From assembly GCF_000143415.4 (NCBI RefSeq), contig NW_003314262.1, positions 1,663,960 to 1,727,959 of the forward strand: DNA of 64,000 bases. Direction: 5' to 3'. Both the position numbers and the translations under genes were made by a program. The stretch comes from Selaginella moellendorffii (Eukaryota; Plantae; Lycopodiophyta). Shown here in pieces: positions 37,301 to 64,000 of the stretch. The notes beneath the pieces were generated by a model. The model was not told the DNA's origin. It made no database searches and saw only the letters and a list, made by a program, of their open reading frames with translations. Each line of letters opens with the position of its first letter. Position 1 is the first letter of the stretch.

Positions 37301-40300
37301 TCATGATGGTTAGTTGTTCTCTTTAATAGCTTTTGGCTTTTCGCAATACCACATGTTCTTTGTGGTTTGCTCTGGATTGGTCTTTTGGGTTTGAGACATC
37401 AATAGGATGTTGCTAACACTTGCTTAGGCAACTTGAGTTCCTTAGTGTTGTTGGCTGGGATCTATTCAGATTGACTAGTGTAATGGTTAATATGAACAAG
37501 CGTTTGTTTGCTTTGCAACATTCATTTTGTTCTGTTGATTATTGCTCGAGTTAGTTCTCATAGATTAGGATGTTATTTCCTTTGGGTGATACATTCGCGA
37601 GCATTGTGCTTGTTAGTCAATAATACTTTGTGTTCTTTGAGTTGTGTTTTGTGAGTTGTTTGGCATGCTATCTGCCATTTTCGGTAGTTCAGTTTCATCA
37701 TTGAGTTTACTTGATGATATACTTGCTATTGAATTTTGTTGGATGGTGATTCCTATGTTTACCACTTATGATGATCTTGGTGGTTCCTCTCTACTATAAT
37801 ACTAGTTTATCGGATGATAACTTACTTGGAATACTTTTGTGTTCTAAAATAAGATTTATTCACTGATAATTCCGACTCTAAGATATCATTGTCTATGACT
37901 TTGATATTTTCCATCTATTGATCTTTGAATTTGGGCCAGTATAGGCAGACTGGCTTCGGCACTTCGTGTGCATGTTGAAATCTCTAGTCATGGGGTAGCT
38001 ACTGTCGACTGGTCACATAACCCGCCTCTCTGTCGATGTTCTTTATTCCGTTGAAAGGGCGTGACTGTGTAAACAACTCTAACTGCCTGTTTACAGTAGT
38101 CTATCTAAACCTTACCGACGGGTTTGGTTTCTTTGCTTAGGAGGGTTGGGGCCTCTGGCTTCTCTCTCTATGTCCTTGCGGGTAGGGCATATCACACTTT
38201 TGTAAGCTAGGTGACTCCCAGAGCAGCAGGGGTGGCTGACACCGTTGGTCATTTCCTTGTCGGCGACAGCCGGAAGGTGTCTGAGCTGGTAGCGCATCCG
38301 CGTTAAACAAAGAGGTTCCCCCTAACTCATTTAAGTTGGTGCATTTCTCACATAGTGTGAGTACCATGAACTTTTTATAGAGTTGTTTCCTTGGCGGTAT
38401 TCTAGACTGGAGTATGCATCGACGAGGACGTCGATCTTCCCAAGGGGGGGAGAGTGTCGCGAATGTGACTTTGGGTATCGAAAGTTACCTGTCGACCAGT
38501 CCTTATGGACACTCTTACTTTACTGCCACGATGGCAGGAGGTCGGTATTGCTGGACCCTTTATTGGCCTCTTTTGTTCAAGTGTTAGTAAACTGGACTTA
38601 GCATCTGTACTTGGCCGGATGAGCATAAGGACGGAATTCCTAAGTGTCTATTTGGCCAAGCATACTTGGCCCGGCTTTTTAGTTCTCTTTTGCTCTGTCT
38701 TGCACTGGCTTGACAAGAACCCTCGCGTATTGAGATTGGTCCCTCAATATCGCTGGATGATAGCTTACCGTGTCTGCCAAACACCCTCGCTATCATGCCC
38801 TTTGTGTTAGTCTCAATTTGTCCTAAATGCTATTTATGGAAAGTGTCCAGATTTGCTCATTTGGCATATCTACGGATTGTAGAGATCGGTCTGAACACAA
38901 TGGTGTTCGTCTTGTGTCCAAATTCGCAATCTAAGGACATTCCATATTTAGTAAGTTTCGAGCTTGTCCCAGAGACTAACTTCTAATACTAAGGGAGGCT
39001 TGGGATGAAAGCCCAAAGCGTGTGTTCCTCAAGGGGGGGGGGGCTGTGGGGGGTTCCAAATGTATAGTAGGGATAGTGGGTAGGTCGGGCATGGCCGACC
39101 AACCTGAGGTATAGTTTAGCTCCCGCTTGCGTGCTTGTCCTTGTTCTGCGTCCGGCTTGGGTCTAAGCCCAAGTTCCATTCCATGCTAGCTGGTGGAGTA
39201 CCCATGTCCTCGCGTTAGGCCACCGGTATGCCGAAATAGCGCCAGACTCCGTTTGGCTCCGTTTTGCGTGCTGGTCCTAGCATTGGGATGCTGGTTGCTC
39301 TAAGACTGTTCCAAGTCGCTCCGGGCCCCTGTCCCTTCGCTTCTTGGGCTGTATGCTCGGGAGTTGCTCCGTGGTCCGGTTCCATCACTCCTTGGCGTCA
39401 CGCTTGCAAGTTTGGCACCGTTCCTTCGTTCAGTGGCCCAAGGCCCTGAACCTCGGGTTCCTATGGACACGTGGCATGGACACGTGGTATGTGACACGTG
39501 GCATCTGTCACGTGGCACAAAGAGGGTTTAGGTTCCGCTTCGTGGTGTTATCCTATGGTAAATCACCATAGGATAAAGGGTCAAAACCACATGTGCTACA
39601 TAGGCTAAAGGATCCCCGAAAACATGACCGAAATGACAAAGAGTTTATCAGATGGGACCGAGTCTAAGATTGAGTCCAAGACCGACTCTGAGACCAAGTT
39701 CGAGATAGAGTCCGGAATCAAGTCCGAGGCTGAATCGGAGACCGAGTTTGAGACCGAGTTTGAGACCGAGTTCGAGACAGAGTCCGAGATCCGAATCGGG
39801 TCTGAGACCAAGTCCGAGGTCAAGTCCAAAGTCGAGTCCGAGATCGGGTCTGAGATCGAGTCCAAGACCGAGTCCGAGACTGAGTCCAAAGTCGGGTCCG
39901 ACATCAAGTCCGAAATCGGGTCCGAGACCGAGTCCGAATACTAATACAGGTGAAGGGGTGAAAGCCCAAAGTGTGTGTCTCCCGGGGGGGCGGGGGGTTC
40001 CAAAAGTATAGTAGGGATAGTGATGTCTACGAATTAGTCTTGAAGGAACTCTCCAGTGGTGCTTCCAAACTGACTTGAGGTTGAAACTGGGGTCGAGGGG
40101 CCTTGGGTGGGAATGAGCATGGACTTGGGTGGTGCCGGAGGGGCCACCCCAGGAAGTGCTCAAGAGTAGCTCCCACTCCTGAAACGGAAACCGATTGCGG
40201 TGTTCCTGGCTCATGTGAAGTGGTGCCCCACTTGAGTACCTTGTGGCTCATTAGTCCTCGCCCTTCCTAGGGGCTTAAGCCTTTCCTTCAGGATGGAAGT

Positions 40301-40681
40301 GGGCCACGGTGTTTTGCCCCAGCATCCCAAAGCAAGTGTTGCACCCAAGACTTGGGATTTATGATCAAGTCTTGTGGTACCAAGGGATGTTAGGAACCTG
40401 ATGGGTTGGTGTGTTTGGCTGCTTGTGCCTGCGGGGAGTGTAGCTGAACCTTAAGTCCAGTTTAACCCAGGGAGGGGGATTGGAAGAGATTTAGGAATCC
40501 GTGGATGGATGGCTAACACTCCGTTGCTCGTGTAGTGAGTAGCTAAAACTAAATAGGACCAAGTAGGAGCTGGTACCATAGGCAGGAACTTTGGCAAGGG
40601 AACTTAGCAAAAGCCAAGGCAGTGTTGGATGGATAGATGAGGTAAGTTGGCAAATTGGAAAGGAAAAATTTGTGGCTTACA
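31334..40681 (+). mobile_element. Family C solo LTR (31334-31366 plus 39606-40681), split by element B
   Basis: Begins tgtaagga and ends tttgtggcttaca like the LTR at 57330-58485. No PBS follows. Flanks AAGGG/AAAGG are a one-mismatch TSD. Confidence 0.85.
31367..39600 (+). mobile_element. Family B non-autonomous (LARD-like) LTR element: partial LTR 31367-32055, LTRs 32335-33480 and 38455-39600, ~5-kb non-coding interior
   Basis: TGTCGC...CTACA termini. Perfect TSD TAGGC (31362-31366 / 39601-39605). PBS tggtatcagag at ~33483. PPT aagggggggagag precedes 32335 and 38455. No interior ORF over ~80 aa. Confidence 0.92.
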
Positions 40682-43600
40682 AAAGGTTTCCTCAAAGAGT
40701 TGAGGATGTGATCCAGATGAGCGTTTGACACAGCAAACGGGCTAATGTAATTGTGGTAAAAAACTATAGTTGGGATCACGGGAAAGATGCAGACTCCAAA
40801 ACAATAAAGGAGTCACAAGATTACCCTCATATAGTGGAGGTTGGTGCTCATAAATTTGAGATCAGAATTGATGACTGTGGGAGGTCAAATACGGAAGAGG
40901 ACACAAGTCCTTGAAATGGTAGCCGGGGCTACTTTTAATAAATGCTAGAACAAACCCAAGGAGTTGGGGGTGTGCTCGGAGGATGAGTTGGTATTCTCAT
41001 CACAAGGACAGATAGTTATAAGGGGCAAAGGTTGCTGCTAGAGAACAAAATCAAGTGTTAGAGTAACACTTGCAAAGATGGTCCTTGTGAGTAGGACATA
41101 AATACAAGGAGTTGTATTCCAGTGTGCTAGCACCTCAAGATAGGTCGTCGAATTAGCAAAGTCCAAAAAGCTGGATAACTCCAATCGAGTCAAGAAATAA
41201 TCCCAAGGGATTGATAGAAGCATTTGGACTGAGATGTATAGTGCCCCACAAAGGATAGGGAGGATCTTAAGATCCAAGTATGGAAATAGTGGGTATTTCG
41301 TTGGTGGCAGAATGTGCTATGCTAAAGTTGTGGGAAAGAGTTTCCCAGAAGAACATAACTTTGGCACAAAGTTGTGCATGAACTCTATGGTGCAGTGCTA
41401 ATGGATAGTTGGCATAAGAGACAGCTGTATTGATCTTGGCAAAAGACCTAGACACAAGTAAAAGGTGTCATAAAAGTAGGCTTGTGGAGCCGATGGTGTA
41501 GAGACACTAAATGTGCCAAGGTGTATTGCCTTGAGGTCAAGTTAACGGGTTTATAAGAACCCCTTCCAAAGGAATCCCAATGGAAATGGGAATTGCATAG
41601 CTTAAGCTGGAAGGCATGTGGTTAGAGTGTGGTGATCCAGATAATGATGGAAGTGTGGAAGCACTAGCAATGAATTGTAGGACTTGACAACTATGAAACA
41701 ACTAAGCAAAAGGTGCAAAATAATTGGTTAAACTAGTAGAAGGTGACTACCTAAGACTTCTTATTGGCATAAAGAAGTTAGATATACCCTTATGAGGGAT
41801 AAATTGCTTATGTTGCGAGATAATAAGTCAATGTCGTAAAGGGAATGCTCATTGCCAAAGAGGCTATCATTGGGACACCCAAGCACTCTAGAACACCAGG
41901 AGGTGGTGTTTGGGGCAATGGATAATGCCCAAGGGATAAAGTCCTTAGCAAATGATGGATAGGAGGTGCTATCCAAATGTCCAAGGTTGCGGAGACAGGA
42001 GAAGTCTATCTACCCAAATTGAACAAAGCCAAAAAGAGATTTTGGCAAGGCTAGTGATGGGCATATAAAGGCCCATAAGTAGCAACAATGACCCCAATGT
42101 GTGGGATTACAAGGTGAGCAAACCCGGATTGAGGAACCACTCCCTAGGCTGTCGGGTAGGTTCATCCCTATGAATACTTGCCAAAGCATGGTAGAAAGTG
42201 CAAAGCTATTTTCCTAGTATGGATGAGAATGACCGAAGGAAATGTATGAGGCCAAAAGGCAAGTAGAAAAGGATAGACCCGAACTATAGGAATCGAAGGG
42301 CATAACCAAAGGTGGTTATGTAAGTTGGGAGTGGAGAATCAAGTGGGTGCTCAAGCATGTTGTCACTAGCGACTATGATGCCATAGAGAGTCTAAAGCAT
42401 GGAATTGTCTATGTTAGACCATGTTAGGTGAAAGGAGAGGCCTTAGCAAGCTAAAGGACAAAGTTCCTTCAAAAGGTTCCCAAAGACAATTCTAAGTAGC
42501 TTGATACCTAGAAAGCCAAGTGTAAATGGTTCATAGAATGCAAAATCAAAGTGGTGCAGTATAAGCATGGTCTTAAAACTTGGCATGAGGTGAGGCTATT
42601 AAGGTTGGGGAAGTAGTTCCCGAGTGTTCAAAGAGAAAGCTTTGAACGAAAGTCAATGGTTAAGGACTTTCACGCTTATGCATGAACTATGTTACGGTGG
42701 CCGGATGACTTGCTAAGTGAGATTGGCATAGTTGAAGGTGCTAACTTAAAAAAGGGTGGCCTATGGGGCCAAGCATGGAGAAGTCCATGCATGATCATAG
42801 ACATGTCAAGTGAGAGGACTTGGCAATGCAGAGGAACTAGGTTCCTAAGCTGTGATTTGTAGCGCGTTTTAAGTCTAAGTTGGTGCATCGGCGTGAGGAA
42901 TTGCACCAGGCATCTTGGGTGATGCCGTCCGTAAATGCATATACGGAGGTTGGGTTCGAGTCCCGACCCTCTAGTGCTTGGGTTCGAGTCCCAAATCACT
43001 AAGGCGTGGTGATGGTTTGGAATATGAGGACACTTATTTTTCGGTGGTCATGGACTCTTAGTAAGGAGACTAGCTTGGGCACACTACCAAGTGGGGAATG
43101 CTCCGAAGTCGTGATACACGGTTAGATTGATTAATGTGAAAACTCGGCATATCTAACTTGAACACTTTGGTGCAAGTGGCACCAAGGATGTGGTGAATGA
43201 GATGGGGACACCCAGTCTCAGTTGCTATGGACCATTGGCTGGAAGGGCTGGCTTGGGTGCACCACCAAGTGTGGGGGATGCTTCCGGGGTCATGGTGAAC
43301 AACTTAAAAGTCTAGAAGACTTAATGCCTATTGGCAAACCTGTTAAGATGCCAAGGTTGGATCACTAAGTGATCTTATGGCTAAAACAAGGATAACGTCC
43401 TTGTGGGGTTAGGAAATAAAGTTCCTAATTCAAAGCATTGATTTGAACTATTGATGATGGTGTGGTTTGGGCAAAGGGACTAAGTGAGAAGAACACCTAA
43501 GGGAAATGAGTTGTGTCAAAGCGATAGCATAATAAGTCTGAAAAAAGTAGTCTCTATAGGAGACCCATAGGAGGGTCACAAAGTTGGGCCGTGGATAAAG

Positions 43601-46600
43601 CCCACAGTAGAAAATACTAAAAAGACATATTAGGGGTGAACACCCTCTGGACTTGGCAAAACAAAGTGTTTGTATAGAACCGAAAAGATACCTCGAAAAT
43701 GGAAGTAGTGATCCTATGTTGTTAGGTGCAACAATCAAGGATAGGAGCAAAAGACTAGTGGTTAAGAAAAAGGCCATGGGAATCATGGGAAAGAATCCAA
43801 ATGGCAAAATTAGGCCAAGAATACTAATGTGTTGGGTGCTAATGGATTGTGGGAAAGGCAATATGTTTCCAAGAATGGATTCCTAACTACTCCAATTTGG
43901 CAAAGGTGGAAGATCCAAGGGTGAGAGTGGTAAGGTAGCCAAATGATAGGGCCGTGAACAGCCTTAGTACAAATTATGATAACTGGAACTTAGTGCTAAA
44001 GGTAGTACGAAATCAAAGAGAGGATGATGGTGCCCTCAAGTAGAGAACTTTCTAGGATGGGGAAGTGGAGTTGCACCATATGTGCAATGCAAGGTGTTAT
44101 AGACACCCAGAAAATTGACTTCGAGAAGTCAGAATTAAAAGTTCCAAAGTGCAAAGGTTATATTGATGGAAATTAAGACTACTCGAGAATGAGTAATAGG
44201 ATTGAGATAGAGAAGATGTCTTTAATAGGTTTAGTGAGAACTAAATCAATAAAATGAGAGAATCACCACAAGTGGTCGAATGAGTCTCTAAGTTGGGAAG
44301 ACTATGCTCCTTAGAGGATGGGAAAGGCATGGTGAGCCTTTGGTATCAAACCATTGACAAATATTGGCGAGAAGCTAAGGATGGAAAGGGTAATACAAGT
44401 TGGTATTACTTTATAAAATAGTTTACTATTCAATGAGGACATTGAACTTTGTCTATGGGTGGTGGAGTTGTGAGACACAAAATCCCTAGGCCCCAAAGTG
44501 GAGCTAAAAGGGTGCCATGTGGTAGTGGCCAAAGCGAAAACTAAACAAGCGTAACACGTTTGGACTAAAAGCTCCAACTTAAAAGGTCGAGAGCGGGAGT
44601 GGAACTCCCAACGAAGGGCTCAAGGAACAAGCACGGAGCAAGCAATAAGTGAGTCTCTAGAAAAAGGACACGAGATGGATATGAGATGGACCCGAGATGG
44701 AGTCCGAGATGAACCCAAGATGGACTCCGAGATGGATCCAACATGGACTCCGAGATGGAGTCCGAGATGGATTTGAGATGGAGTCCGAGATGGAGTCCGA
44801 GATGGATTTGAGATGGAGTCCGAGATGGAGTCCAAGATGGACTCGAGATGGAGTCCGAGAAGGACCTGAGATGGAGTCCGAAGTTGAGACCGGGACCGAC
44901 ACCGGAACTGAGACCAAGACTGAGACCAAGGCCAAGGCCGAGACTAAGCCCAAGCTTGAGTCTGAGTCCGAGTCCGAGTCTGAGAGGGTGAAAGCCCAAA
45001 GCGTTCGTCTCCCAGACCCTAGGGGGTTTGGTGAGCTCCAAAAGTATAGTGAGGGGGAGGACTGTAGGACATTGAACTTCATCTATGGGTGGTGGAGTTG
45101 TGAGACACAAAATCCCTAGGCCCCAAAGTGGAGCTGGAAGGGTGCCATATGGTAGTGGTTAAAGTGAAAACCAAATGAGCATAACACGTTTGGATTAAAA
45201 GCTCCAACTTGAAAGGTCGAGAGCAGGAGTGAAACTCCCAACGAAGGGCTCAAGGAACAAGCACAGAGCAAGCAATAAGTGAGTCTCTAGAAAAGGGACA
45301 CGAGATGGACCTGAGATGGAGTCCGAGATGGAGTCCGAGATGGACCTGAGATGGACCCGAGATGGAGTTCGAGATGGAGTCCGAGATGGAATCCGAGATG
45401 GACCCGAGATGGAGTCCGAGATGGACCCGAGATGGAGTTTGAGATGGACCCAAGATGGAGTTCGAAATGGAGTCCGAGAAGGACCCAAGATGGAGTCCGA
45501 AGTCAAGACCGAGACCGAGACTGGGACCAAGACCGAGATTGAGACCGGGACCTAGACCGAGACCAAGGCCAAGGCTGAGACCGAGCCCAAGGCTGAGTCC
45601 AAGTCCGAGTCCAAGTCTGAGTCCGAATTCAAGTCTGAGAGGGTGAAAGTCCAAAGCGTTCATCTCCCAGACCCTGGGGGGTTTAGTGAGCTCCAAAAGT
45701 ATAATGAGGGGGAGGATTGCAATGGAGCCAGTTTGGCTAGGAAAGGCCAGTTTGGCCCAAGAAGGCTGTTCCCAAGTGTTGGGTGATGGGATAACCACTA
45801 GAAGTCCAAGGCTAAAGTGAATATAGATTGACAAGCGGGGTAGCTTGGTGAAGTGTTCAAGAGCCGGCTCTAGTTCCCTCGGAAGATCGACTGGCCAATG
45901 CTCTTAGTCCAAGTGTGGGTGGCACTACCTACTTGGATACCTAGTGTGGCTCAATGGAACCTCGCTCTAAACCCATGGCTAGAGCACCCAAAGGCAGAAG
46001 GCAGGGAAAGTACCCATGAGGCCACGGTGTTCCAAAATGTTGTTCCAAAGTCCCAGACTATGGAAAGGAAGAGGAGTAGCCCTCTGGTGTGGTGACCAAG
46101 GACATGGTCACACGGTGAGGAAGTCCTAAAGGACTGTGGGACTTAGTGGTCGGGCTTGTGGGCCTTGATCTAGTGGCAGTGTTGGTGAACACAGCCATGG
46201 ATAGAAAGGGATTTAGTGAGGACCGAAAAGGAGATATTGGGGAAGGCTATTCTCCATGTCTGCGGGCATCCTAAGTATGCTAAGGAGTGGATTTGGGATG
46301 ACCATTCATGGACGGATGGCCCAGTCTTGGAGAAATAGGATTGCAAAGCAGGTGGTGTTGGACCACCAATATGACCAAGGTGAATGAGCATGGCCTAATG
46401 TAATAGGCTGATATGTCGGTGGTACCTTGGGGTGCCGATCATAGGATCGGACACATGGAGCACTTGGACCAAGTGCAAAGGTTGAGTGGCATGGATGCCA
46501 TTCTCAGGGATAGCAAGCCCTAAGTTTGGAATAGGACTTATGGAGGTGGTGAGTGAGACTCCTTCAAGTGGTCAAAGGTGTGGCTAAATGACTAAAGTAA

Positions 46601-48269: not shown

Positions 48270-49393
48270 GAAAATGGGCAATTGCTTGATGAAAGAGCCC
48301 TTAGTGGCTATTTTATCCCTATTTATCCCCTAAGTTTCCAAGGATCCATGGTGACAATATATCCAAATGTCATCCCATGATCATATGCGCTACACTCACC
48401 CCCTTTTCAGAGATGTCAATGTCTTTATTGACTATTGACTAACAACCCCTATTGAGCCAAGTATTGTAGTCCCATAGTGGATATTTTCATCCGTGGATAC
48501 TCCATATAAGAGGAAGGACAGACGCATAGATGCCCAATATGTACGATTTCAAATTTAATCACATGCGCTACACTCACCCTATTTTCAGATATGTCAATGT
48601 CCTTATTGACTATTGACTAAAGGAAAGACATATGCATGAATGTCCAATACGTACGATTTCAAATTTAATCACATGCGCCACTGACCCCCTTTTCAGAGAT
48701 GTCAATGTCCTTATTAATTATTGACTAACAACCCTATTGAGCCAAGTACCGTAGTCCCATAGTGGATACTTTCGTCCGTGGATACTTCACATAATAAGAA
48801 AGACATATGCATGGATGCCCAATACGTATAACCTCTACTGAGCCAAGTACCACAATACCATAGTGGATACTTTCGTCCGTGAATACTTCATATAAAAGGA
48901 AGAACATATGTATGGATGCCCAATATGTATGATTTCAAATTTTAATCATATGCGCTACACTCACCCCCCTTTTAGAGATGTCAATGTCCTTATTGACTAT
49001 TGACTAGAGGAAGGATGTATGCATGGATGTATAATACGTATGATTTCAAATTTAATCATATGTGCTACACTCACCCCCCTTTCAAAGATGTCAATGTTGT
49101 TATTGACTATTGACTAAAGGAAGGACGTATGCATGGATGTCTAACAATTTCAAATTTAATCACATGCGCTACACTCACCCCCCTTTTAGAGATGTTAATG
49201 TTCTTATTAACTATTGACTAACAACCCCTACTGAGCCAAGTACCGCAGTTCTATATAACAACCCCCCCTTTCAAAGATGTCAATGTCCTTATTGACTATT
49301 GACTAACAACCCCTACTGAACCAAGTACCACAATCCCATAGTAGATACCTTTGTCTGTGAATACTCCATATAAGAGGAAAGATATACGCATGG
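48270..49393. repeat. Modular tandem repeat array (units of ~110-180 bp) that continues at 56976-~57185 beyond the inserted element
   Basis: About 7 copies of catgcgctacactcacccc...gatgtcaatgtccttattgactattgactaa, interleaved with gagccaagtac...gtggatac and gcatggatgcccaata modules. 48270-48390 recurs at ~57063-57182. Confidence 0.85.
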
Positions 49394-52300
49394 TGTAAGT
49401 GACTAATTTTTCCATTCTACTTTAGTCACTTAACCACACCTCCGACCACTTGGAGGAGTCTCATTCACAACCTCCATAAGCCCAACTCAGGACTTGGGGC
49501 TTGCTTGCCCCGAGAATGGCATCCATGCCACTCAACCTTAGCACTTGGTCCAAGTGCTCCACGTGTCCGATCCCATGATCGACACCCCAAGGTATCACCG
49601 ACGTACCGGCCCGTTACGCTAAGGCCATGCCCATTTACCTTGGTCACACTGGTGGTCCAACACCACTTGCATCACCGTCTTGGCCCTCCAAGACTAGGCA
49701 AACCATCCGTGAGTGGTCATCTCAGATCCACTCCTTAGCATCCTTAGGATGCCCACCGACAAGGGGAATAGCCTTCCCCAATATCCCTCTGTCAGTCCCC
49801 ACTAAGTCCCTTTCTGCCCCTGGCCGTGTTTGCCAACACTGCCACTGGATCGAGACCCACAGGCCCGACCACTAAGTCCCACAGTCCTCTGGGACTTCCT
49901 CACCACACGACTGTGTCCTTGGTCACTACCCCAGAGGACTGCTCCTCTTCCTTTCCACAGTCTGGGCCTTTGGGACGACATTTCGGAACACCGTGGCCTT
50001 ACGCGAGCCACCTGGGTACTCTCCTCGCCTTCTGCCCTTGGGTGCTCTAGCCATGGGCTTAGAGCGGGTTCCGTTGAGCCACACCAGGTATCCAAGTAGG
50101 TAGTGCCACCCACACTTGGACTGGGAGCATCGGCCAGTCGATCTCCCGGGGGAACTAGAGCCGGCTCTTGAACACTTCACCAAGCTACCCCGCTTGTCGG
50201 TCTGTGTTCACTCTAGTCTTGGACTTCCCAGTGGGCAGCTCATCACCCAACACTGGGTCTGGCCTTCCTGGGCCAAACTGGCCTTTCCTGGCCAAACTGG
50301 CTCCACTGCAGTCCTCCCCCTACTATACTTTTGGAGCTCACCAAACCCCCCAGGGTCTGGGAGACGAACGCTTTGGGCTTTCACCCTCTCAGGCTCCGGA
50401 CTCGGACTCGGACTCGGACTCGGACTCGGACTCGGACTCGGATTCAGACTCGGACTCGGTCTCGGCCTCGGTCTCGGTCTCGGCCTCGGCCTCGGTCTCG
50501 GCCTCAGTCTCGGTCTCGGTCCCGGTCTCGGTCTCGGTCTCGGTCCCGGTCTCGGTCCCGGTCTCGGTCTCGACTTCGGACTCCATCTCGGACTCCATCT
50601 CGGACTCCATCTCGGACTCCATCTCGGGTCCATCTCGGACTCCATCTCGGACTCCATTTCGGGTCCATCTCGGGTCCACCTCGGACTCCATCTCGGACTC
50701 CATCTCGGACTCCATCTCGGGTCCATCTCGGACTCCACCTCGGACTCCAACTCGGGTCCATCTCGGGTCCACCTCAGACTCCACTTCGGACTCCATCTCG
50801 GGTCCATCTCGGGTCCACCTCGGACTCCACTTCGGACTCCATCTCGGACTCCATCTCGGGTCCATCTCGGACTCCACTTCGGACTTCAACTCGGGTCCAT
50901 CTCGGACTCCACTTCGGACTCCAACTCGGGTCCATCTCGGACTCCACTTCGGACTCCAACTCGAGTCCATCTCGGACACTCCCCCGTGTCATGTGTTGGT
51001 CCTTTTGGGTCCCTTTCTGGAGCCTCGCTTTTTGCTCGCTTCGTGCTCGTTCCTCGAGCCCTTCTTTGGGAGTTCCACTCCCGCTCTTGACTTTTCAAGT
51101 CGGAGCTTTTGGTCCAAACGTGTTACGCTCGTTTGGCTCTCGCTTCAGCCACTACCACGTGGCACCCTTTCCGGCTCCACTTTGGGGCCTAGGGATTTTG
51201 TGTCTCACAACTCCACCACCCATAGACTAAGTTCGATGTCCTCATCGAACGGTAAACCCTTTCATAAAGTAACACCCACACGTGTTACCTTTTCCATCCT
51301 TGGCACCTAGCCAATCTTTGTCTATGGTTTGACACCAAAGGCTCACCATGCCTTGTCCATCCTTTAAGGAGCGTAGTCTCTCCAACTTAGAGACTGATTG
51401 GACCACATGTAATGGTTCTCTCCTTTTATTGGTTTAGTTCTCGCTAAACCTCTTAGAGACCCTTCTCTAAGTCAATCCCACTACTCCTTCTCGAGTAGTC
51501 TTAATTTCCATCGATATAACCTCTGCACTTTGGAACTTTGAATTTTGACTCCTTGGAGTCAATTTCCTAGGTGTCTCTGACACCTTGCTTTGCACCTTTT
51601 GTGCAACTCCACTTCCCATCCTAGGAAGTTCTCTACTCGAGGGCACCATCATCCTCTCTTCTATTTCGTGCCAAAGTTCCAGTTATCATACTTTGTGCTA
51701 GGGCTGTTCATGGCCCTATCATTTGGCTACCTTACCGCTCCCTCCCTTGGAGCTTCCACTTTCGCCAAATCGGAGCAATTCGGAATCCATCCTTGGAAAC
51801 ACACTTCCTTTCCCGCAATTTGTTAGCGTCCAACACATTAGTGTTCCTCGCCTAACTTTGTCACTTGGATTCCTTCCCAGGGATTCCACGGCCCTATCTT
51901 GGCCACTCATCTTTTGCTCCTATCCGTTGATTGTTGCACCGAGCAACATCGAATCTCTACCTCCCTCCTTGAGGTATTCTTTTGATTCCTTAGCAAAGGC
52001 TCTGCTTTGCCAAGACTAGGGTGTTCACCCCTAGTAAGTCTCTTTTAGCATCTTCTGCTGTGGGCTCTATCCTCGGCCCAACTTTGTGACCCTCTCATGG
52101 GTCTCTTTAGAGACTACTTTCCTTGGACACACTATGCCATCGCGATGACATAGCTCATTTCCCTAAGGTGCTTTTCCCACTTGGTCACCTTGACCAAGCC
52201 ACACCATCATCAATAGTTCAAATCAACACTTTGAACTAGGAACCTTATTCCTTAACCCAAACAAGGACCTTGTCCTTATTTAGCCACAAGATCACCTAGT

Positions 52301-55300
52301 GATCTCACCTCGGCACCTTAACAGGTTTGCCAATAGGTACTAGGTCTTCCAGACCTTTAACTTGTTAACTACGACCCCGGGGGCATCCCCCACACTTGGC
52401 GGTGCGCCCAAGCCAGCCCTTCCGGCCAAGCGTCCATAGCAACTGAGATTAGGTGTCCCCATCTCACTCACCACGTCCTTGGTGCCACTTGCACCAAAGC
52501 GTTCAAGTTAGATATGCCGAGCTTTCACACTAAGCAATCTAACCGTGCATCACGACTCCGAGGCATCCCTCGCTTGGCGGTGTGCCCAAACCAGTCTCCC
52601 CACTGAGAGTCCATGACCACCGAAATATGAGTGTCCTCATATTCCAAACCATCACCACGCCCTAGTGATTTGGGACTCAAACCCAAGCACTAGAGGGTTG
52701 GGACTCGAACCCAACCTCCGTATATGCATCTACGGACGGCATCACACAAGATGCCTGGCGTGACTCCCCACGCCGGTGCACCAACTTATTTTTAAAGCGC
52801 GCTACAGATCACAGCTTAGGAACCTAGTTCCTCCACACTGCCAAGTCCTCTCACTTGACATGTCTGTGATCATGCATGGACTCCTCCATGCTCGGCCCCA
52901 TGGCCCACTCTTTTTGAAGTTATCACTTTCAACTAGGGTCTTTGTTCCCCCGACGTGCCAATCTCACTTGGCAAGTCCTCCGACCATTGTAACATGGTTC
53001 CTACATAAGCGTGAAAGTCCTTGACCATCGACTTTCGTTCAAAGCCCTCTCTTTGAACACTCGGGAACTACTTCCCTAACCTTGATAACCTTGCCTCATG
53101 GCAAGCTTCAAGACCACGCTTCTGCTGCGCCACTCTGATTTTGCACGTTCCATGAACCATTTACACTTGGCCTTTCTAGGTACTACGCTACCTAGAATTG
53201 TCTTTGGGAACCTTGAAGGAACTCTGTCCCTCAGCTTTTCTAAGGCCTCCCCTTTCGCAAGCTTTATAGTTGCCATATAGTCTAACATGGACAATTCCAT
53301 ATTTTAGACTCTCCATGGCATCACGGTTGCTAGCGGCAACACCCTCGAGCCCCCACTTGATTCTCCACTCCCAGCTGGCATAACCAACCTTGGTTATGCC
53401 CTTTGATTCCTACGGTTCGGTTCTATCCCCTTACTTCTTGCTTTTTGGCTTCACACCTTTCCTTTGGTCATTCTCCTCCAGACCAGGAGGATAGCTTTGC
53501 ACCTTCTATCATGCTTTAGCAAGTATTCTTAGGGATGAACCTACCCAATAGCCTAGGGAGTGGTTCCTCAATCCGGGTATGCTCACCTTATAATCCTACA
53601 CACTGGGATTACATTGTTGCTTATGGGCCTTTACATGCCCATCACTAGCCTTGCCAAAATTCCATTTTTGGCTTTGTCCAACTCGGGTAGACAGTCCTCT
53701 CCTGTCTCCGCAACCTTGGACATTTGGATAGCACCTTCTATCCATCATTCGCTAGGGACTTAGTCCCTTGGGCTTTATCCATTGCCCTCGCGACATCAAA
53801 CACCACCTTCTGGTGTTCTAGAGTGTTCGGGTGTCCCAATGATGGCTTTCTTGACAATGAGTATTTCCTTTTATGACATTGACTTACTATATCGCAACAC
53901 AAGCAACTTATCCCCCGTAAGGGTATATCCAACTTCCCTATGCTATTAAGAAGTCTTGGGTAGCTACCTTTTACCTGTTTAACCAGTTATTTTGCACCTC
54001 TTGCTTAGTTGCCTCATAGTTGTCAAGTCCTACAACTCATTGCTTGGTGCTTTCGCACCTCCATCATTATCTGGGTCACCACACTCCAACTGCATGCTCT
54101 GCAGCTTAGGCTATGCTATTTCCATTTCCATTGGGATTCCTTTGGCAAAGGGTTCTCATGAACCCACTAACATAGCCTCAAGGTATCACACCTTGGCACA
54201 TTTGGTGTCTCCACACCATCGGCTCCACAAGCCTACCTCTATGATATTTCCCCTTCGTGTCTAAGTCTTTGCTAAGACCAACACCGCTCTTTCTCATGCC
54301 AACCATCCGTTAGCACTGCACCATAAAGGTCACACACAACTTTATGTCAAAGTTGTTTTCTTCTGGGAACACCTTTCCCATAACTTTAGCATGGCATATT
54401 TTGCCATCGATGAGATACCCTCTGTTCTCATCCTTGGATCCTATGATCCCCCCCCATCCTTTGTGGGGTACAACACACCTCAGTCCAAATGCTTCCATCA
54501 GTCCTTTTAGGACCATCTGTTGACTCTACTTGAGTCATCCAGCAGTTTTGGACTTGGTTAATCCACAGACCCGTAAGGTCCTACTTGTGAGGCACTAGCT
54601 CACTGGAATACACTTCTTGCATTCTTGTCTTACTCAAAAGGACTATTTTCACAAGTGTTACTCCGACACTTGATTTTGTTCTCTGGGGGCAACCTTTGCC
54701 CCTTAGGACTACTTGTCCATGTGATGAGAACACCAACTCATCCACTTAATACACCCCCAACTCTTGGGGTTGTTCCAGCATTTATTAGAGGTAGCCCCGG
54801 CTACCTTTTCAAGGACTTGAGTCCTCTTCCGTATTTGACCTCCCACGGTCATTACTTCTGGTCTCACATTCATGAGCACCAACCTCAACTATATGAAGAA
54901 AATCTTATGACTCCTTTATTGCTTTGGAGTCTTTATCTTTCCCGTGATCCCAATTGTAGTTGTTTACCACAACTACATTAGCCAGTTTGCTAAGTCAAAC
55001 GCTCATCTGGATCACATCCTCAACTCTTTGAGGAAAACCATATATTGTTCCCAAGATCCCAAAGTCGTTCCATTATTGGCCCTTTTCTATCCACCACCTC
55101 GTCTACAAGTTCACACATGAACTGTAATGGAGAGCCATGTCTTCCCGACTTGCTACTCCTCAAGGATAGGCCCACTCCTCGGACCTTCCGATGCCAACAC
55201 TAGTGGTGATATACTTGAGCACCAATAAAAGTCAGACTAAGGAACAGCTCCGATACCAAGTTGTAAGCGACTAATTTTTCCATTCTACTTTAGTCACTTA

Positions 55301-56975
55301 ACCACACCTCCGACCACTTGGAGGAGTCTCATTCACAACCTCCATAAGCCCAACTCAGGACTTGGGGCTTGCTAGCCCCGAGAATGGCATCCATGCCACT
55401 CAACCTTAGCACTTGGTCCAAGTGCTCCACGTGTCCGATCCCATGATCGACACCCCAAGGTACCACCGACATATCGGCCCGTTACGCTAAGGCCATGCCC
55501 ATTTACCTCGGTCACACTGGTGGTCCAACACCACCTACATTCCAATCCCGTCTCTCAAAGACTGGGTCATCCATCCATGAGTGATCATCCCAGATCCACT
55601 CCTTAACATCCTTAGGATGCCTACAGACATGGGGAATAGCCTTCCCAATATCTCTGTTCCGGTCCCCACCAAGTCCCTTTCTGTCCTTGGCTGTGTTCGC
55701 CAACACTGCCACTGGATCGAGGCCCACCGGCCCGACCACTAAGTCCCACTATCCTCTAGGACTTCCTTACTGTGTGACTGTGTCCTTGGTCACTACCCCA
55801 GAGGACTGCTCCTCTTCCTTTCCACAGTCTGGGCCTTTGGGACAACATTTCGGAACACCGTGGCCTTACGCGAGCCACCTGGGTACTCTCCTCGCCTTCT
55901 GCCCTTGGGTGCTCTAGCCATGGGCTTAGAGCGGGTTCCGTTGAGCCACACCAGGTATCCAAGTAGGTAGTGCCACCCACACTTGGACTGGGAGCATCGG
56001 CCAGTCGATCTCCCGGGGGAACTAGAGCCGGCTCTTGAACACTTCACCAAGCTACCCCGCTTGTCGGTCCGTGTTCACTCTAGTCTTGGGCTTCCCAGTG
56101 GACAGCTCATCACCCAACACTGGGTCCGGCCTTCCTGGGCCAAACTGGCCTTTCCTGGCCAAACTGGCTCCACTGCAGTCCTCCCCCTACTATACTTTTG
56201 GAGCTCACCAAACCCCCCAGGGTCTGGGAGACGAACGCTTTGGGCTTTCACCCTCTCAGGCTCCGGACTCGGACTCGGACTCGGACTCGGACTCGGATTC
56301 GGACTCGGACTCGGCCTCGGCCTCGGTCTCGGCCTCGGCCTCGGTCTCGGTCTCGGTCCCGATCTCGGTCTCGGTCTCGGTCCCGGTCTCGGTCCCAGTC
56401 TCGGTCTCGACTTCGGACTCCATCTCGGACTCCATCTCGGACTCCATCTCGGGTCCATCTCGGGTCCATCTCGGACTCCATCTTGGACTCCATCTCGGGT
56501 CCATCTCGGACTCCATTTCGGGTCCACCTCGGACTCCATCTCAGACTCCATCTTGGACTCCATCTCGGGTCCATCTCGGACTCCACTTCGGACTCCAACT
56601 CGGGTCTATCTCGGGTCCACCTCGGACTCCACTTCGGACTCCATCTCGGACTCCATCTCGGGTCCATCTCGGACTCCACTTCGGACTCCAACTCGGGTCC
56701 ATCTCGGACTCCACTTCAGACTCCAACTCGGGTCCATCTCGGACACTCCCACGTGTCATGTGTTGGTCCTTTTGGGTCCCTTTTTGGAGCCTCGCCTTTT
56801 GCTCGCTTCGTGCTCGTTCCTCGAGCACTTCGTTGGGAGTTCCACTCCTACTCTTGACTTTTCAAGTCGGAGCTTTTGGTCCAAACGTGTTACGCTCGTT
56901 TGGCTCTCGCTTCGGTCACTACCATGTGGCGCCCTTCTGGCTCCACTTTGGGGCCTAGGGATTTTGTGTCTCACA
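49394..56975 (-). mobile_element. Complete family A non-autonomous (LARD-like) LTR element: 5' LTR 55262-56975, 3' LTR 49394-51209, ~4.05-kb non-coding interior
   Basis: TG...CA termini. Perfect TSD CATGG (49389-49393 / 56976-56980). Minus-strand PBS tggtatcggagc (~55247-55258) and PPT gggtggtggagt (51210-51221). Confidence 0.95.
50395..50977. repeat. Hexamer/dodecamer arrays (CTCGGA, CTCGGT, CTCCATCTCGGA) inside family A LTRs; related GAGTCC/GAGACC arrays in family C LTRs
   Basis: Also at ~44680-44980, 45300-45640, 47120-47490, 56262-56745, and in family C at 39655-39940, 57415-57685, 63790-64000. Confidence 0.95.
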
Positions 56976-59744
56976 CATGGATGCCCAATATGTATGAGAG
57001 TTCATGCTATTTGCTCTTATACCACATGTAGTGCACTTTATCTCTCTCCCCTTAAACTAATTAGAAAAGGGGCAATTGCTTGATGTGAGAGCCCTTAGTA
57101 ACTATTTTATCCCTATTTATCCCCCAAGGTTCTAAGGATCCACGGTGACAATATATCAAAATCTCATCCCATGATCACATGCATTACTGTAATTGAGAGG
57201 TAAGGGAAGTTCCTGAGACAAAGAACCAACATCCTACATATGAAGACAATGAGGAGTTAGGGGAGGAAAATGAAAATTAGCTGGAACAGAAAGGGGAATA
57301 TTATACAACTGAATTGACTACGAAATAAGTGTAAGGAACTAACTCGCCGAGGTGTTGTAGGCTAAAAGAGCCCCGAAAGCATAACCAAAATGATAAAGAG
57401 TTCATCGGATGGGACCAAGTCTAAGATCGAGTCCGAGACCGACTCGGAGACCGAGTTCGAGATAGAGTCCAGAATCGAGTCCGAGACCGACTCGGAGACC
57501 GAGTTCGAGACCGAGTTCGAGACAGAGTCCGAGATCCGAAATCAGGTCCGAGACCGAGTCCGAGGTCGAGTCCGAGGTCAGGTCCGAGATCGGGTCTAAG
57601 ATCAAGTCCAAGATCGAGTTCGAGACCAAATCCGAAGTCGGATCCGAGATCAAGTCCGAGATCGAGCCAGAGACTAAGTCCGAGTACTAATACGGGTCAA
57701 GGGGTGAAAGCCCAAAGTGTGCATCTCCCGGGGGGGGGGGGGGGATGTAGGGGGTTCCAAAAGTATAGTAGGGATAGTGAGGTCTAGGAACTAGTTTTGA
57801 AGGAAATCTCTAGTGGGGCTACCAAACTGACTTGAGGTTGGGATTGGGACCAAGGGGCCTTGGGTGGGAGTGAGCATGGACTTGGTTGGTGCTGGAGGGG
57901 CCATCCAAGGAAGTGCTAAAGAGCAGCTCCCACTCCCGAAAGGGAAACCGATTGTAGTGCTCCCGGCTCATGTGGAGTGGTGCCCCACTTGAGTACCATG
58001 CGGCTCATTGGTCCTCGCCCTTCCTAGGGGCTTGGACCTTCCCTTCGGGATGGAAGTCGGGGGGTAGAGGTACCCATACCGAGCCGTTAGGCCACGGTGT
58101 TTCGCCCCGACATCCCGAAGCAAGTGTTGCACCCAAGGCTTGGGATTTAGAGGCCCTGGGTCCCATGATCAAGTCTTGTTGTACCAAATGGTGTTAGGAA
58201 CCTGGAGGCTTGGTGTGCTTGGCTGCTTGTGCCTACGGGGAGTGTAGCCAAACCTTAAATCCAATCTAACCCGGGGAGGGGGATTGGGAGAGATTTGGGA
58301 ATCCATAGATGGATGGCTAACACTCCGTTGCTCGTGCAGTGAGTAGCTGAAACCAAGTAGGACCAAGTAGGAGCTGGTACAATAGGCGAGAACCTTGGCA
58401 AAGGAACTTAGCACAAGCCAAGACAGTGTTGGTCAGATAGACGAGGTAAGCTGGCAAATTAGAAAGGAAAAATTTGTGGCTTACAATTTGGTATCAGAGC
58501 CTTTTCCTCAGTTCTAGCGAAGGATAGAGGCGGATTGCTGGGAGATGGCAAAGGTAGGGCGGAAGCGAACCAAGGCAGAGAAGGACCCTCCTCCAGAGCT
58601 AGAGCCTCTGGTTGAACAAGAGGCTATGGATGAGGAATCCTTGCATAAGGAGGACTCTAGTGAGGAAACTTCCAAACAGGAGTCCGGTGGCGAAGTTCGG
58701 TCGTCCAAGGCTCGATTGGACATGCTAGAAGGACAGTTGGCATAGACCAATGCCCTGTTGGAGACTCTCGTACGCAAGCTAAAGCGTGACGAGAAGCGGA
58801 AGAAAAAGAGAAAGACTGCGGATGCTAGTAGCGCAGAAGGTGCGGACCCTTCGGCAGGGACTGAGGCAGAACCAAACAAGGTCGAATAGACAGAAGTAGA
58901 ATCAGTCCCTCAGGTAGTTCCCAAGTACAAACCAAAGCCCCCACCGGTCTTCAAGGGAGTGAATGACTATAAGGTGGTGGAGGATTGGTTTTACAATATG
59001 GAGGACTACTTTCGAGCGTTGCGATTACCGAGTTCGGAGAAGGTCCCATGTGCAAAACCATACTTGGCAGATAATGCCAAGTCTTGGTGGAGAACGACAG
59101 AGGCCAACGAAGGATCGGTGGCCACTTGGGACATGATGAAGGCGAGGATCCGCGCAATATACGTTCCTCCGAATGCCACTCTGCATCTGAGAGATGAGCT
59201 GAGTAGGCTGAAGCAGATTGGAACCATCCAAGAATATGTGAATGGGTTCATGGCAAAGAGGATACTGGTCACAGACATGGGGGATATGAATACATTCCAT
59301 GCCTTCATATCAGGTTTGCAAACCTAGGCTCGCGGTGAAGTGATGCGGTGGAACCCAACCAACTACAAGGAAGCATTGGATGCGGCCATCAAGGTGCATT
59401 TCAATGATAACCTGCGAAAGGGGAACACGACGGGGTCGGGATCCACATTTAGCAAAGGGGCCAAACCAAGAGGAACGTATAGCAGGGGGAAATTCAAGAA
59501 GAGTTTATCTAAGAATGAGTCCTCGGGGTTTCGGAAAGGCAAATCCAGTGGCCAGCGAGCGAGTACGTGGGGGAGTCAAGTGAAAAGAGACAAACCCACG
59601 GATAAGAAGGTCAAGTCGTATAGCAGCGTGGGAAACAACGTATGCTACAACTGCGGTGAAGTGGGACACTTTTCGAGGGAATGTCCCTTCCCGAAGAAGG
59701 CCAGAGCCAATATGGCCATCAAGTCGGGTGAAGTCCAAACTGAG

Positions 59745-59801
59745 GTATGTGATCCAGTCCTTAACTCAAAGTTACTCATTACACGAACAACTTTGGTAAA
59801 G
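59745..59801 (+). other. Candidate 57-nt in-frame intron between the gag zinc knuckle and the protease
   Basis: gag|GTATGT...ggtaAAG|agt; AT-rich relative to its flanks and host-like in size. Confidence 0.5.
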
Positions 59802-62418
59802 AGTCGTTCGCGACATCTACTAGCCCTCAGAGGGAAGCTCGGAGGTAGCTTTGTTAAGATCCTTATTGACACGGGTGCTTCGGATAATTTTGTGGCTGCA
59901 GATATAGTCCGGCAAGCTAGACTAACGGTGCAGCGGTTAGGCGAACCAAGGACTATAGAGTTTGTTCAAGGTAGCCAAAGCACTGATGAGGTACTTCGAC
60001 AAGCGAGAGTTGAAGTAGGGACATGGAAAGTAGACATGGATTTCACTGTGTTGGACATGGCGGGATTTGACGTGATCTTCGGAATGGATTGGTTTAATCG
60101 GTTCGTGGTAGCCCTGCATGGACAAGGTAGGAACCTTGTGGTACTGGCGAATGCCCAAGGAAGAAGATCTAGGGTGGAGGCCCAGGATCTAAAGGTAGGG
60201 CAAAGCAAGGCCAAAGATTCCTACTTAAACCTGGTGTCCACGAGAGGACAACTCACTAAAGGAACTAAGGCAGCCTTTTTGTGCTTACTCTCGGTGAAGA
60301 GTGACAAAAAGACATGAACAAAAGAAGTACCTTTAGTGATCTAGTGGGTGTTGGACCAATTCCAGGATACCATGCCAGAGGAGCTACTGGCGGGGTTGCC
60401 CTTTGCATGACCGATAGAACATAAGATTGAGCTGGTCAAGGGTGCTGAGGCAATGGTTCATCCCCCCTATCGTTTGAACGAAAAAGAACTCAAGGAGCTT
60501 AAGTGCCAACTAGAGGAGTTGGTGGAGAAAGGGTATGTTAGGTTGAGCAAGTCGCCATAAAGGGTGCCAGTGTTATTTGTGCAAAAGAAAGATGGTTCTA
60601 TGCGCATGTGCATAGACTACTAGTTGCTCAACAAGTGTACAAAGAAAAACAAGTACCCTTTGTCAAGAATTGAGGACCTGTTCGATAGGTTGGGAAAGGC
60701 AAAATACTTCTCAAGGATTGACCTAAGGTCAGGATACTACCAGATCAGGGTAGCCGAGGAAGATGTCGAGAAGACAACCTATCGAACGAGGTATGGGAGC
60801 TTTGAGTTTCTGGTGATGCCCTTCGGGCTATGCAATGCGCCAGCAACATTTTCGGTGCTGATGAACCACATCTTTGTACCCTATCTGGATCACTTCGTAG
60901 TCGTTTATATCGATGACATCTTGATCTATAGCGAGACGCTAGAGGAGCATGCCGAACACTTGGCGAAAGTGTTTGAGAAACTAAGGGAACACAAACTGTA
61001 TGCTAAAGAGAGCAAATGTGACTTTGCTCAACAAGAGGTAAAGTTTCTTGGGCATGTGGTGGGCCAGGACGGGCTCAAGGTGGACCCAGAGAAGGTCCAA
61101 GCGATCCAAGAATGGGAGCGACCATCGAATGTACATGAGTTGAGGGCGTTCTTGGGGCTATGCAACTACTACCGAAAGTTTATTAGACACTATTCGAAAG
61201 TAGCCCTGCCCTTAACGGACCAAACAGAAAAAGAGAAGATGGTATGGACAGCAGAATGCGAGGCAGCATTCGTCCACCTCAAAGGAAAGTTGAGGAAGGC
61301 TCCCATGTTAGCATTACCAGACTTTGGTAAGGACTTTGAGGTAGAAACAGATGCTTCAGACTTTGCGTTAGGCGCAGTTTTGAAGCAAGACAACCATCCA
61401 GTAGCGTTCTTCTTGAAGAAGTTGGACAAGGCTCAATGGAAGTGGCATGCCCATGAGAAGGAATTGTTTGCGGTGGTCAAGGCGCTCAAGGAGTGGCGAC
61501 ACTACCTTGGGAGACACTTCAAGGTTTACGCAGACAATGTGGCAACGAAACACTTCTTGTCACAGCCCGACCTGAGAGGGAAACAAGGTCGGTGGGCCAA
61601 TGCCTTGGCCGAGTTTGATTGTGAAATTCTGTACAAGCCTGGGAAGAGCAACATCATGGCGGATGCGCTAAGTCGAAAAATGAGCTTGAGGTTGGCGATA
61701 TCCAGCGCAACAGCAACCTTCTGAGACGATGTGCGAACAGCATATGAGAACGATGGTCTAGCACAAGAAGTGTTGCTCAGGAATCTAGAGGCACGGGAAG
61801 CTCACCAGAGAGGTGAGCTGCCAACGGAAGAGAAAACGGGTTATGCGGAACGCAACGGACTCATCTATTACAAGCAAACGAGGGTGTATGTTCCAGAAGG
61901 GGAACTAAGGAAGGTAGCCTTAGAAGAGTGTCATGACGGACTTTTTGTGGGACACGGCAGAGTGCCCAAGACGATGGGCTTACTCAAGAGGAAGTACCAT
62001 TGGCTAGATATGGCTAAGGACGTCCAAGACTATGTAAAGACATGTCCAACATGTCAGCAGGTCAAAGCCGTGACTAAGGCTAGTGGGGGCTTGTTGCAAA
62101 GCATCCCAATTCCAGATCGTCCGTGGAAATGTCTTACGATGGACTTCATCATAGGACTTCCCCCAAGTGAGGGGTTTGATGCGATATTCATGGTGGTGGA
62201 CCGATTTTTGAAAATGGCACATTTCATACCCACTACAACGGAAGTGGATGCGGAAGGTGTGGCAAAGCTGTTCTTTGAACAAGTGCTTCCAGTGCGGGGA
62301 AGGCCGGAAGAGATCATCTCAGATCGAGATAAGATCTTCACTAGTAGGTTCTGGAGGACTCTCCTGGAACAGTATCGCACCAAGTTGAAATTCAGCACAA
62401 CCTATCACCCACAGACAG

Positions 62419-62460
62419 GTATGGGTATTAAATCAAGTTTGGTGGCACTAACACTTCTTG
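62419..62460 (+). other. 42-nt intron-like insert in the integrase core; acceptor apparently mutated
   Basis: Splits the conserved YHPQTD(G)QTER motif. Starts GTATGG, contains CACTAAC, ends ttcttg rather than ag. Confidence 0.65.
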
Positions 62461-62878
62461 ACAGACAAACGGAAAGGGTGAATAGGCAGCTGGAGGATTA
62501 TTTGCGATGCTATGTCTCGGGAGACCAGACCGATTGGGTAAGTCATTTGGGACTTGCGGAAATGTGTTATAATAACTCACCACATTCGAGTATCGGGGTG
62601 AGTCCATGGGAAGTCATCAATGAGCGAGCTATTGAAGGTCCTGTGGAACTCGGCGTGGCCGAGTATCATGGAGAGTTACCCGCAGTGGAGGCATTCACAG
62701 TGGAAAGACTCAACATTTGGAATCTAGTGAGGGATTCTTTGGAACGGGCACAACAAAGGCAAACCAAGTACGCAAACCAGAAGTGCCGGGACGTAGAGTT
62801 CCAAGCTGGGGAGAAGGTGTGGCTGAACACCAAGAACCTCAAGCTACCAAGTGGGATCAGCCGAAAGTTGACCCAAAG

Positions 62879-62930
62879 GTAAAAATGCATGTATTCCTGT
62901 AAATGAATTGATCTTGAGTTCCTTAAGCAG
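62879..62930 (+). other. 52-nt GT-AG intron in the integrase C-terminal region
   Basis: caaag|GTAAAA...TTAAGCAG|gttcgcggggccttac. Removal restores KLTQRFAGPY and the frame into the chromodomain. Confidence 0.85.
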
Positions 62931-64000
62931 GTTCGCGGGGCCTTACGAGAATAAGGCTCGAATCGGTAAAGTGGCTTACCGTCTCCGACTTCCTCGAGAG
63001 ATGGGGAAGATGCATCCCATGTTCCACGTGAACTTACTCAAGCCGTATTTTGAGGATCCATTTCGCAAGGACCAAGTAAGACCTTTACCTGAGGTTATCC
63101 AAGGGGAAGAGGAATACGAAGTCGAGGCCATCCTCAATGCGCGCAAGAGCAAGTGACAAGGACGCAAGGTGAGAGAGTTCTATGTGAAGTGGAAAGGATT
63201 TCCACACTGCAAAGCAACATGGGAACTGGAGGAGAACCTAGCGAACGCACGAGATCTAGTGGAGGAATTTTTGCAAGGCAGAACTCTATGTACTTATGCA
63301 AAGTTCAATTAAATGTATCAATTTGAGAAGTTGAGCAATGGCATATGTTGGGACCCAAAGGCGCGCCGAAGGTAAGCTAATTAGCATGGGTTAGGTAGGT
63401 CAACCAGGCATAGGGGACTACGCCCGACTCCCTACGGGGATGTCAAATCCGTAGACGTATTCTGGGTTCAAGTCCCAACCCCCTAGTAAAGCAAGGTTGG
63501 GTTCAAGTCCCAACCCCATACTAGGGCATGGTGAGGTGAGGAGTATAGGGACACCTATATTCCGTTGTCATCGGCTCTTGGCCCGGGAGGCTAACTTAGG
63601 CACACCGCTAAGTGGGGGGATGCCCCCAGAGACATGGTCAACAAGTCGTAGGATAAAAAAGAGACGTTCGATGTGGGCATCGAACTTCTTCTATGGGTGG
63701 TGGAGTTGTAAGGAACCAACTCACCGAGGTGTCATAGGCTAAAAGAGCCCCGAAAGCATGACCAAAATGATAAAGAGTTCATCGGATGGGACCAAGTCTA
63801 AGATCGAGTCCAAGACTGACTCTAAGACCGAGTTCGAGATAGAGTCCGGAATCGAGTCCGAGACCGACTCGGAGACCGAGTTCGAGACAGAGTCTGAGAT
63901 CCAAAATCGGGTCCAAGACCGAGTCTGAGGTCGAGTCTGAGGTCGAGTCCGAGGTCGGGTCCGAGATCGGGTCCGAGATTGAGGCCAAGATTGAGTCCGA

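Follow-up and report, generated by a model that had tools for sequence, protein, structure and literature searches.

Two short introns in the integrase gene of a Ty3/gypsy chromovirus of Selaginella moellendorffii, very likely SM1-Galahad

Loss of introns is the classic proof of retrotransposition. Several LTR retrotransposons are known to carry introns: a 2025 review treats Ogre and EVADE as the notable intron-bearing elements of plants in its section on the subject (PMC12786077), and a paper on BARE adds Bagy2 and CRR where it lists such elements (PMC3735527). According to the parts of three papers that deal with it, Ogre, from the Tat lineage of Ty3/gypsy, has an intron of about 274 bp between Gag-PR and RT (PMC6317226, PMC4408406, PMC12786077), which stays in the genomic copies and is spliced from a subset of transcripts to complete the polyprotein. 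BARE1 has a small 104-nt intron and separate RNA pools, and its spliced RNA is described as starting from a second TATA box, lacking the R repeat and not being packaged (PMC3735527). For BARE1, EVADE and Drosophila copia, the passages on splicing state that the spliced RNA is used for translation and is not reverse-transcribed, and that splicing removes Pol and boosts Gag (PMC3735527, PMC5580714). Outside plants, foamy viruses are described as making their integrase from a spliced pol mRNA, a separate subgenomic message without gag, while the genome is the unspliced RNA (PMC7828637). Introns also survive retrotransposition in Penelope-like elements, one Selaginella family of which has an inferred intron; these are non-LTR elements with a different enzyme and mechanism, and their introns are described as lying mostly in the 5′ region (PMC8557442).

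The closest described family is SM1-Galahad, a chromovirus of the Galadriel clade from S. moellendorffii. In their account of the family, Novikov et al. (2012, PMC3350952) gave a length of 7.5 kb, LTRs longer than 1 kb with poly-G, a Met primer-binding site (PBS) and hundreds of copies, and found no intact copy. The element was presented with three ORFs: ORF1 of 3885 bp (1295 aa) without a chromodomain, then a short ORF of 316 bp and finally one of 309 bp that carries a group I chromodomain. The sister family SM2-Galahad was reported there to have a single intact ORF of 1577 aa. Neither 'intron' nor 'splic' occurs in the text or supplement of that paper (PMC3350952), and the literature searched, which is other than Repbase, subscription journals and two REXdb supplements, holds no report of introns in SM1-Galahad or inside the integrase of any LTR element. 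The family described below is apparently a known one with an unreported gene structure, and its splicing apparently a variant of a known strategy.

We analysed a stretch of 64,000 nucleotides of S. moellendorffii DNA (contig NW_003314262.1), referred to here as the window. Near its end lies an LTR-flanked element with the following features, all on the forward strand:

57330..58485, +, 5′ LTR, 1156 nt, TG..CA, with tandem repeats and a 15-G tract at 57730
58489..58500, +, primer-binding site, putative tRNA-Met type
58545..62418, +, exon A: gag, zinc knuckle, protease, RT, RNase H, integrase zinc finger and integrase core up to HPQT
62419..62464, +, intron 1, 46 nt, GT..AG, phase 1
62465..62878, +, exon B: catalytic Glu, remaining integrase core and start of the SH3-like domain
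62879..62930, +, intron 2, 52 nt, GT..AG, phase 2
62931..63312, +, exon C: GPY/F motif, remainder of the SH3-like domain and chromodomain
63694..63706, +, purine-rich tract preceding the 3′ LTR
63707..64000, +, start of the 3′ LTR, which runs into the window end

The type of the primer-binding site at 58489..58500 was assigned from its motif, which we take to be that of tRNA-Met. Pfam matches follow the order Gag-PR-RT-RNase H-integrase of Ty3/gypsy chromoviruses, and a chromodomain (PF00385, E 1.8e-11) lies at the integrase C-terminus in exon C, where it is joined to the integrase only after splicing. Domain order, LTR pair and chromodomain all agree with the first classification of the element as a gypsy chromovirus. 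If the two LTRs are of equal size, the element is about 7530 nt long. The 3′ LTR part and the 5′ LTR agree in 91% of 277 ungapped columns, the differences being 24 transitions and 1 transversion, and no clear pair of TATA boxes was seen in the LTR. The initial annotation had described gag-pol as staying in one frame from 58545; in fact exon A carries nine in-frame stops, all before 62880, and a further stop at 63154 interrupts the chromodomain (about 63115-63271), so the window copy with its 10 stops is dead. Its exon B also starts 4 nt shorter than in other copies. No second pol-bearing copy was found in the 64-kb window. An AT-richer stretch at about 59745-59800, between the zinc knuckle and the protease, begins with a donor-like GTATGT; compared with homologues it did not stand out as an insert.

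Intron 2 was the starting point of the work. As first described from the letters alone, a TAA (at 62880) closes the gag-pol frame after KLTQR, a 52-nt AT-rich GT..AG segment follows, and coding resumes one frame on with FAGPY, all of which we could confirm. The GC content of the segment is 0.33 against 0.49 in the flanks, a value not reached by any other 52-nt window of the coding region (4513 compared), and a branch-like TTGAT lies 23 nt upstream of its 3′ end. The segment splits the Pfam domain SH3_Tf2-1, with model positions 24-63 of 64 falling downstream. Among homologues, 17-26 residues separate the GxxVxL-type motif from GPY/F (182 motif matches), and removal of the 52 nt leaves 20 residues by hand count, which bears out the statement that excision restores the KLxxRFxGPY region. 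The segment had also been called of host intron size. Four host introns, read by eye in one neighbouring gene, measure 58-92 nt (their removal gives an open frame of 417 codons), which puts 52 nt at the lower limit of this small sample or slightly under it.

What the initial annotation missed is a second GT..AG insert, intron 1, at 62419-62464. Compared with 12 full-length homologues, 14 residues encoded at 62418-62459 are unique to the window copy and sit exactly between HPQT and DGQSER of the Ty3 integrase, so that the insert separates the second catalytic Asp from the catalytic Glu. Of 250 homologous motifs, 242 have HPQ[T/S] joined directly to [D/N]GxxE; the remaining 8 differ by substitutions and not by insertions. 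The D,D(35)E spacing is a feature of the integrase family, and once intron 1 is removed the Asp-Glu spacing is 35 residues, as in the Ty3 alignment. The intron is 46-47 nt long in other copies, and the window copy lacks a few letters relative to them at both ends of it; because of this shortening the insert is in frame only in the window copy and was therefore overlooked. CTAAC lies 17 nt before its 3′ end. Both introns have the features of the U2 type (GT..AG, branch-like motif, AU-richness), although the AU-richness of intron 1 is mild, a GC content as low being reached in 7% of other windows. AGGT spans both junctions of intron 2, so that four letters can be assigned to either side, and GACAG ends both exon A and intron 1. 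Such short direct repeats at both introns would fit a gain by insertion with a short duplication, although much of them is splice consensus. The two introns resemble neither each other nor other DNA of the window beyond chance.

For transcripts, we examined contigs aligned to 62280-63270 from four probable RNA runs (X15, X17, X18 and X20, from four studies), whose RNA status was guessed. Only two joints occurred in them, namely the skip of the 52-nt GT..AG segment and the skip of intron 1. Intron 2 was skipped exactly in three of the four runs (X15, X18 and X20, from three studies), with 255, 24 and 252 letters, respectively, on the short side of the joint; the spliced junction proposed at the outset as a check is found in contigs of all three. 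Intron 1 was skipped in two of the four (X15 and X18; 42 nt in window coordinates). In X15, one 2500-nt contig lacks both introns and extends to the chromodomain. The X20 contig keeps intron 1, lacks intron 2 and is chimeric on its 5′ side. X17 retains intron 1, and separate contigs of this run end inside intron 2. A second contig of X18 keeps most of intron 2 and has a poly-T end near the intron-2 donor, which suggests an antisense polyadenylated RNA.

The X15 and X20 contigs differ at 8 listed sites; therefore at least two copies splice intron 2. X17 retains intron 1 and yet has most of the listed X15 variants in common with X15, which means that near-identical sequence occurs both spliced and unspliced. 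Intron 2 is a real intron of the spliceosomal type, as first proposed, with an exact 52-nt skip in three of four probable RNA runs; exact removal from RNA (the RNA status of the contigs being guessed) and presence in DNA are found together, as for U2-type introns.

Raw reads were sparse. Three runs labelled as RNA-Seq were sampled at about 12%, 9.2 million reads each, and gave 6, 3 and 0 reads at the locus, none of which crossed the spliced intron-2 junction. One 150-nt read of X22, a labelled run, was deduced from bin depths to end at 62417 and resume at 62460; this would be the same intron-1 joint as in the contigs, beneath the threshold at which joints were listed. Three raw reads enter intron 2 and stop at 62903, apparently on a chimeric copy. 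Signs of expressed chimeric copies came from X18, X20, X22 and X23: one copy breaks off at 62903 inside intron 2 in three runs, and another, with unrelated sequence joined before 62385, had a depth of 59. We considered polyadenylation within intron 2 at 62903 and rejected it, as the X18 contig continues there with non-A sequence absent from the window. Expression of the family is very low and partly chimeric, and given the chimeric 5′ part of the X20 contig, some of the splicing seen may derive from read-through fragments and not from autonomous copies.

The introns are present in genomic DNA throughout the family. We aligned 13,014 contigs of the DNA run X1 to 62200-63400. The two bins that cover intron 2 have summed depths of 1.03 and 0.86 million, against 0.30-1.23 million in other bins; intron 2, which might have been private to the window copy, is family-wide, its depth matching that of the flanks. 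Over intron 1 the depth dips to 0.32 million, and the loose ends there belong to contigs which have the intron along with an indel relative to the window copy. We attribute the dip to these indels of the window copy and not to absence of the intron. Neither intron skip was among the 15 best-supported of 28 DNA joints (depth 131-345), and those below the best 15 had lower depth where visible, from which we infer that intronless DNA amounts to at most about one copy's worth. Beyond the family, protein searches gave no close relatives, the best identities being at most 42% (79 matches), 50% (36 matches) and 51% (among 150 matches listed), and thus offered no annotated spliced protein of the family for comparison. 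A scan for related loci gave 11 distant metagenome loci with 40-61% identity over short stretches, which say nothing about the introns, and none in viral contigs.

Sequence variants were used to look for selection on the spliced frame. The tests cover the variants listed, 40 of 144 and 40 of 68, with four non-coding ones dropped, and the frequency cut was placed at a visible gap. Among the X1 coding variants (36 of the 40 listed), all nine with frequencies of 39-73% are synonymous in the spliced frame, including six of six downstream of intron 1, and the shared variants in exon C are synonymous in three of three cases. Differences between X15 and X20 are synonymous at seven of eight sites. The union of both sets downstream of intron 1 gives 11 synonymous changes of 12 (neutral share 0.34, binomial p 6e-5), whereas of 22 changes found largely in the dead window copy alone, 9 are synonymous (Fisher p 0.005). 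As these variants segregate among intron-bearing copies, the spliced frame has likely been under selection after the introns were gained.

The element has the size, LTRs above 1 kb, TG..CA ends, poly-G, Met PBS, copy number and host of SM1-Galahad. Of three host genes of the window that were looked up, two cluster at 90% with proteins named from S. moellendorffii. The ORF lengths agree as well. The frame comprises 1291 codons between the ATG and intron 1, and by hand reading the unspliced frame of X17 and X20 goes four codons into intron 1 before a stop, which together makes 1295 aa, the published length of ORF1. Our ORF3 has 309 nt, equal to the published 309 bp, and ORF2 has 318 nt, 2 nt off the published 316. 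The chromodomain follows, by eye, the fourth logo of REXdb Additional file 7, which we took as Galadriel, the labels in that file being jumbled. The family is very likely SM1-Galahad, matched by description and not by sequence identity to the exemplar, and the published consensus appears to carry both inserts. Membership in Tcn1 was rejected, since a PBS of the tRNA type is present here but absent from most Tcn1 elements. The two introns would explain both the published three-ORF layout, whose breaks are the introns in the element described here, and the failure to find intact SM1-Galahad copies.

Most probably, only the doubly spliced mRNA serves to make the complete integrase with its chromodomain, and packaging and reverse transcription use the unspliced RNA. 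The latter is argued by the daughter copies, which keep the introns; on this point the initial annotation, which had the unspliced RNA as the copied genome, fits the DNA data. Translation of the unspliced RNA would yield Gag, PR, RT and RNase H followed by a truncated integrase that lacks the catalytic Glu, some 1295 aa altogether, and that of the doubly spliced RNA a polyprotein of about 1557 aa with full integrase and chromodomain, within which the integrase could reach the particles in trans. The likeliest route would be two RNA pools as in barley BARE, one capped, processed and translated, the other copied, and such pools would let the introns persist at little cost.

The same data bear on the switch in targeting that was proposed at first, with the unspliced RNA encoding an integrase that lacks GPY/F and the chromodomain. 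They do not support it in its original form: in X17, in X20 and in the published 1295-aa ORF, the frame read without splicing ends within intron 1 and does not reach the catalytic Glu. The unspliced RNA therefore encodes a catalytically incomplete integrase, and retention of intron 2 also cuts the SH3-like C-terminal domain. An amended switch would work through RNA lacking intron 1 and keeping intron 2, which would encode an active integrase without chromodomain, splicing of intron 2 then enabling targeting to heterochromatin. It could draw on the retention of intron 2 in some X17 and X18 contigs, on X20 as a sign that the introns can be spliced independently, and on Tf1, whose integrase without the chromodomain is more active and less specific according to work cited in PMC3350952. 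We nevertheless consider it improbable, as the required isoform is missing from both contigs that extend across the two introns (few as these are), fully unspliced RNA stops before the catalytic Glu, and the X18 contig with intron 2 has the poly-T end and may be antisense RNA. The stop would moreover fall within the SH3-like domain before GPY/F and, judging from integrase structure, would likely cripple the enzyme.

Little credence goes to the reading that the inserts inactivated a master copy, leaving a non-autonomous family that parasitises a helper such as SM2-Galahad and is spliced by accident. The absence of an intact SM1-Galahad beside the single intact ORF of SM2-Galahad, both as reported in the account of the families (PMC3350952), would suit it, as would the very low and partly chimeric expression. 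However, the 2012 search for intact ORFs would miss intron-bearing copies, the shared variants are almost all synonymous downstream of both inserts, exon C included, and two independent accidents would each have to supply GT..AG, a branch-like motif and exact restoration of the frame. It seems highly improbable to us that the spliced contigs reflect assembly artefacts or one or two genomic copies without introns. The guessed RNA status of X15, X17, X18 and X20, the view of only the best 15 of 28 DNA joints and the possibility that DNA and RNA runs come from different plants leave some room for it. Against this, the same exact joints recur in three studies with different sequence variants, near-identical variants exist spliced and unspliced, and the deduced read of a labelled RNA-Seq run has the intron-1 joint; splicing would also be the simplest origin of an intronless copy.

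The reading with doubly spliced mRNA as the source of integrase can be extended. It is possible, though rather unlikely, that SM1-Galahad gained both introns after its split from the intronless SM2-Galahad, that the introns sort copied RNA from RNA which is only translated, and that the splicing rate sets the amount of active integrase per particle. If true, this LTR retrotransposon would depend on the host spliceosome to put together its catalytic triad, and its own replication would select for retained introns.

Compared with the systems described above, the element resembles Ogre in that introns persist in the genomic copies and their splicing, in part of the transcripts, completes the polyprotein. 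Ogre's one intron gates all of RT-RH-IN as the papers on it describe, whereas here two introns of about 50 nt gate only the integrase, and one of them, unlike in Ogre, splits the integrase catalytic triad. Both introns lie within the integrase and not between PR and RT, where no comparable insert stood out in a protein comparison with 12 homologues. With BARE1, EVADE and copia the element would share a spliced RNA which is translated and not copied into DNA. The polarity is opposite to that of their accounts, since splicing here does not truncate the polyprotein to Gag but completes Pol, both splices restoring the frame. Integrase from spliced mRNA and a genome of unspliced RNA would also be common to foamy viruses, although the spliced message here is only about 100 nt shorter and still encodes Gag. 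Survival of introns through retrotransposition is shared with the Penelope-like elements.

Although they are spliced, and although the integrase probably requires their removal, two introns of about 50 nt are retained in hundreds of copies. Spliced and unspliced RNA differ by less than 2% of their length, which makes the family a natural reporter for the separation of translated and copied RNA. ORF-based screens are suggested to misjudge such families as dead. The family is also a case of intron gain, with the intronless sister family as the likely ancestral state.

The chromovirus lies beside other repeats of the window. A long LTR element whose internal DNA measures about 4 kb is present in several copies, at 49384-56975 (minus strand), 40687-45719 and 27431-30151. 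Six-frame translation of the copy at 51210-55250 gave no Pfam matches. The long element has the Met PBS, an LTR repeat motif and 3′ non-coding pieces in common with the chromovirus, and is possibly a non-autonomous, LARD-like partner of it. At 39601-40682 lies an LTR that is 83% identical to the 5′ LTR of the chromovirus and is followed directly, with no PBS, by the internal region of the non-coding element; it is possibly a recombinant. A young element at 32056-39601 has 1426-nt LTRs that are 99.3% alike and 4.6 kb of internal DNA without a Pfam match, and a 691-nt partial LTR duplicate stands beside it at 31367-32057. The nested block of LTR elements begins at about 26000. Positions 1-22000 are dense in host genes, including PPR and C2H2 zinc finger genes, together with others which, from their motifs, are presumably FRIGIDA-like, F-box, Rab and thioesterase genes.
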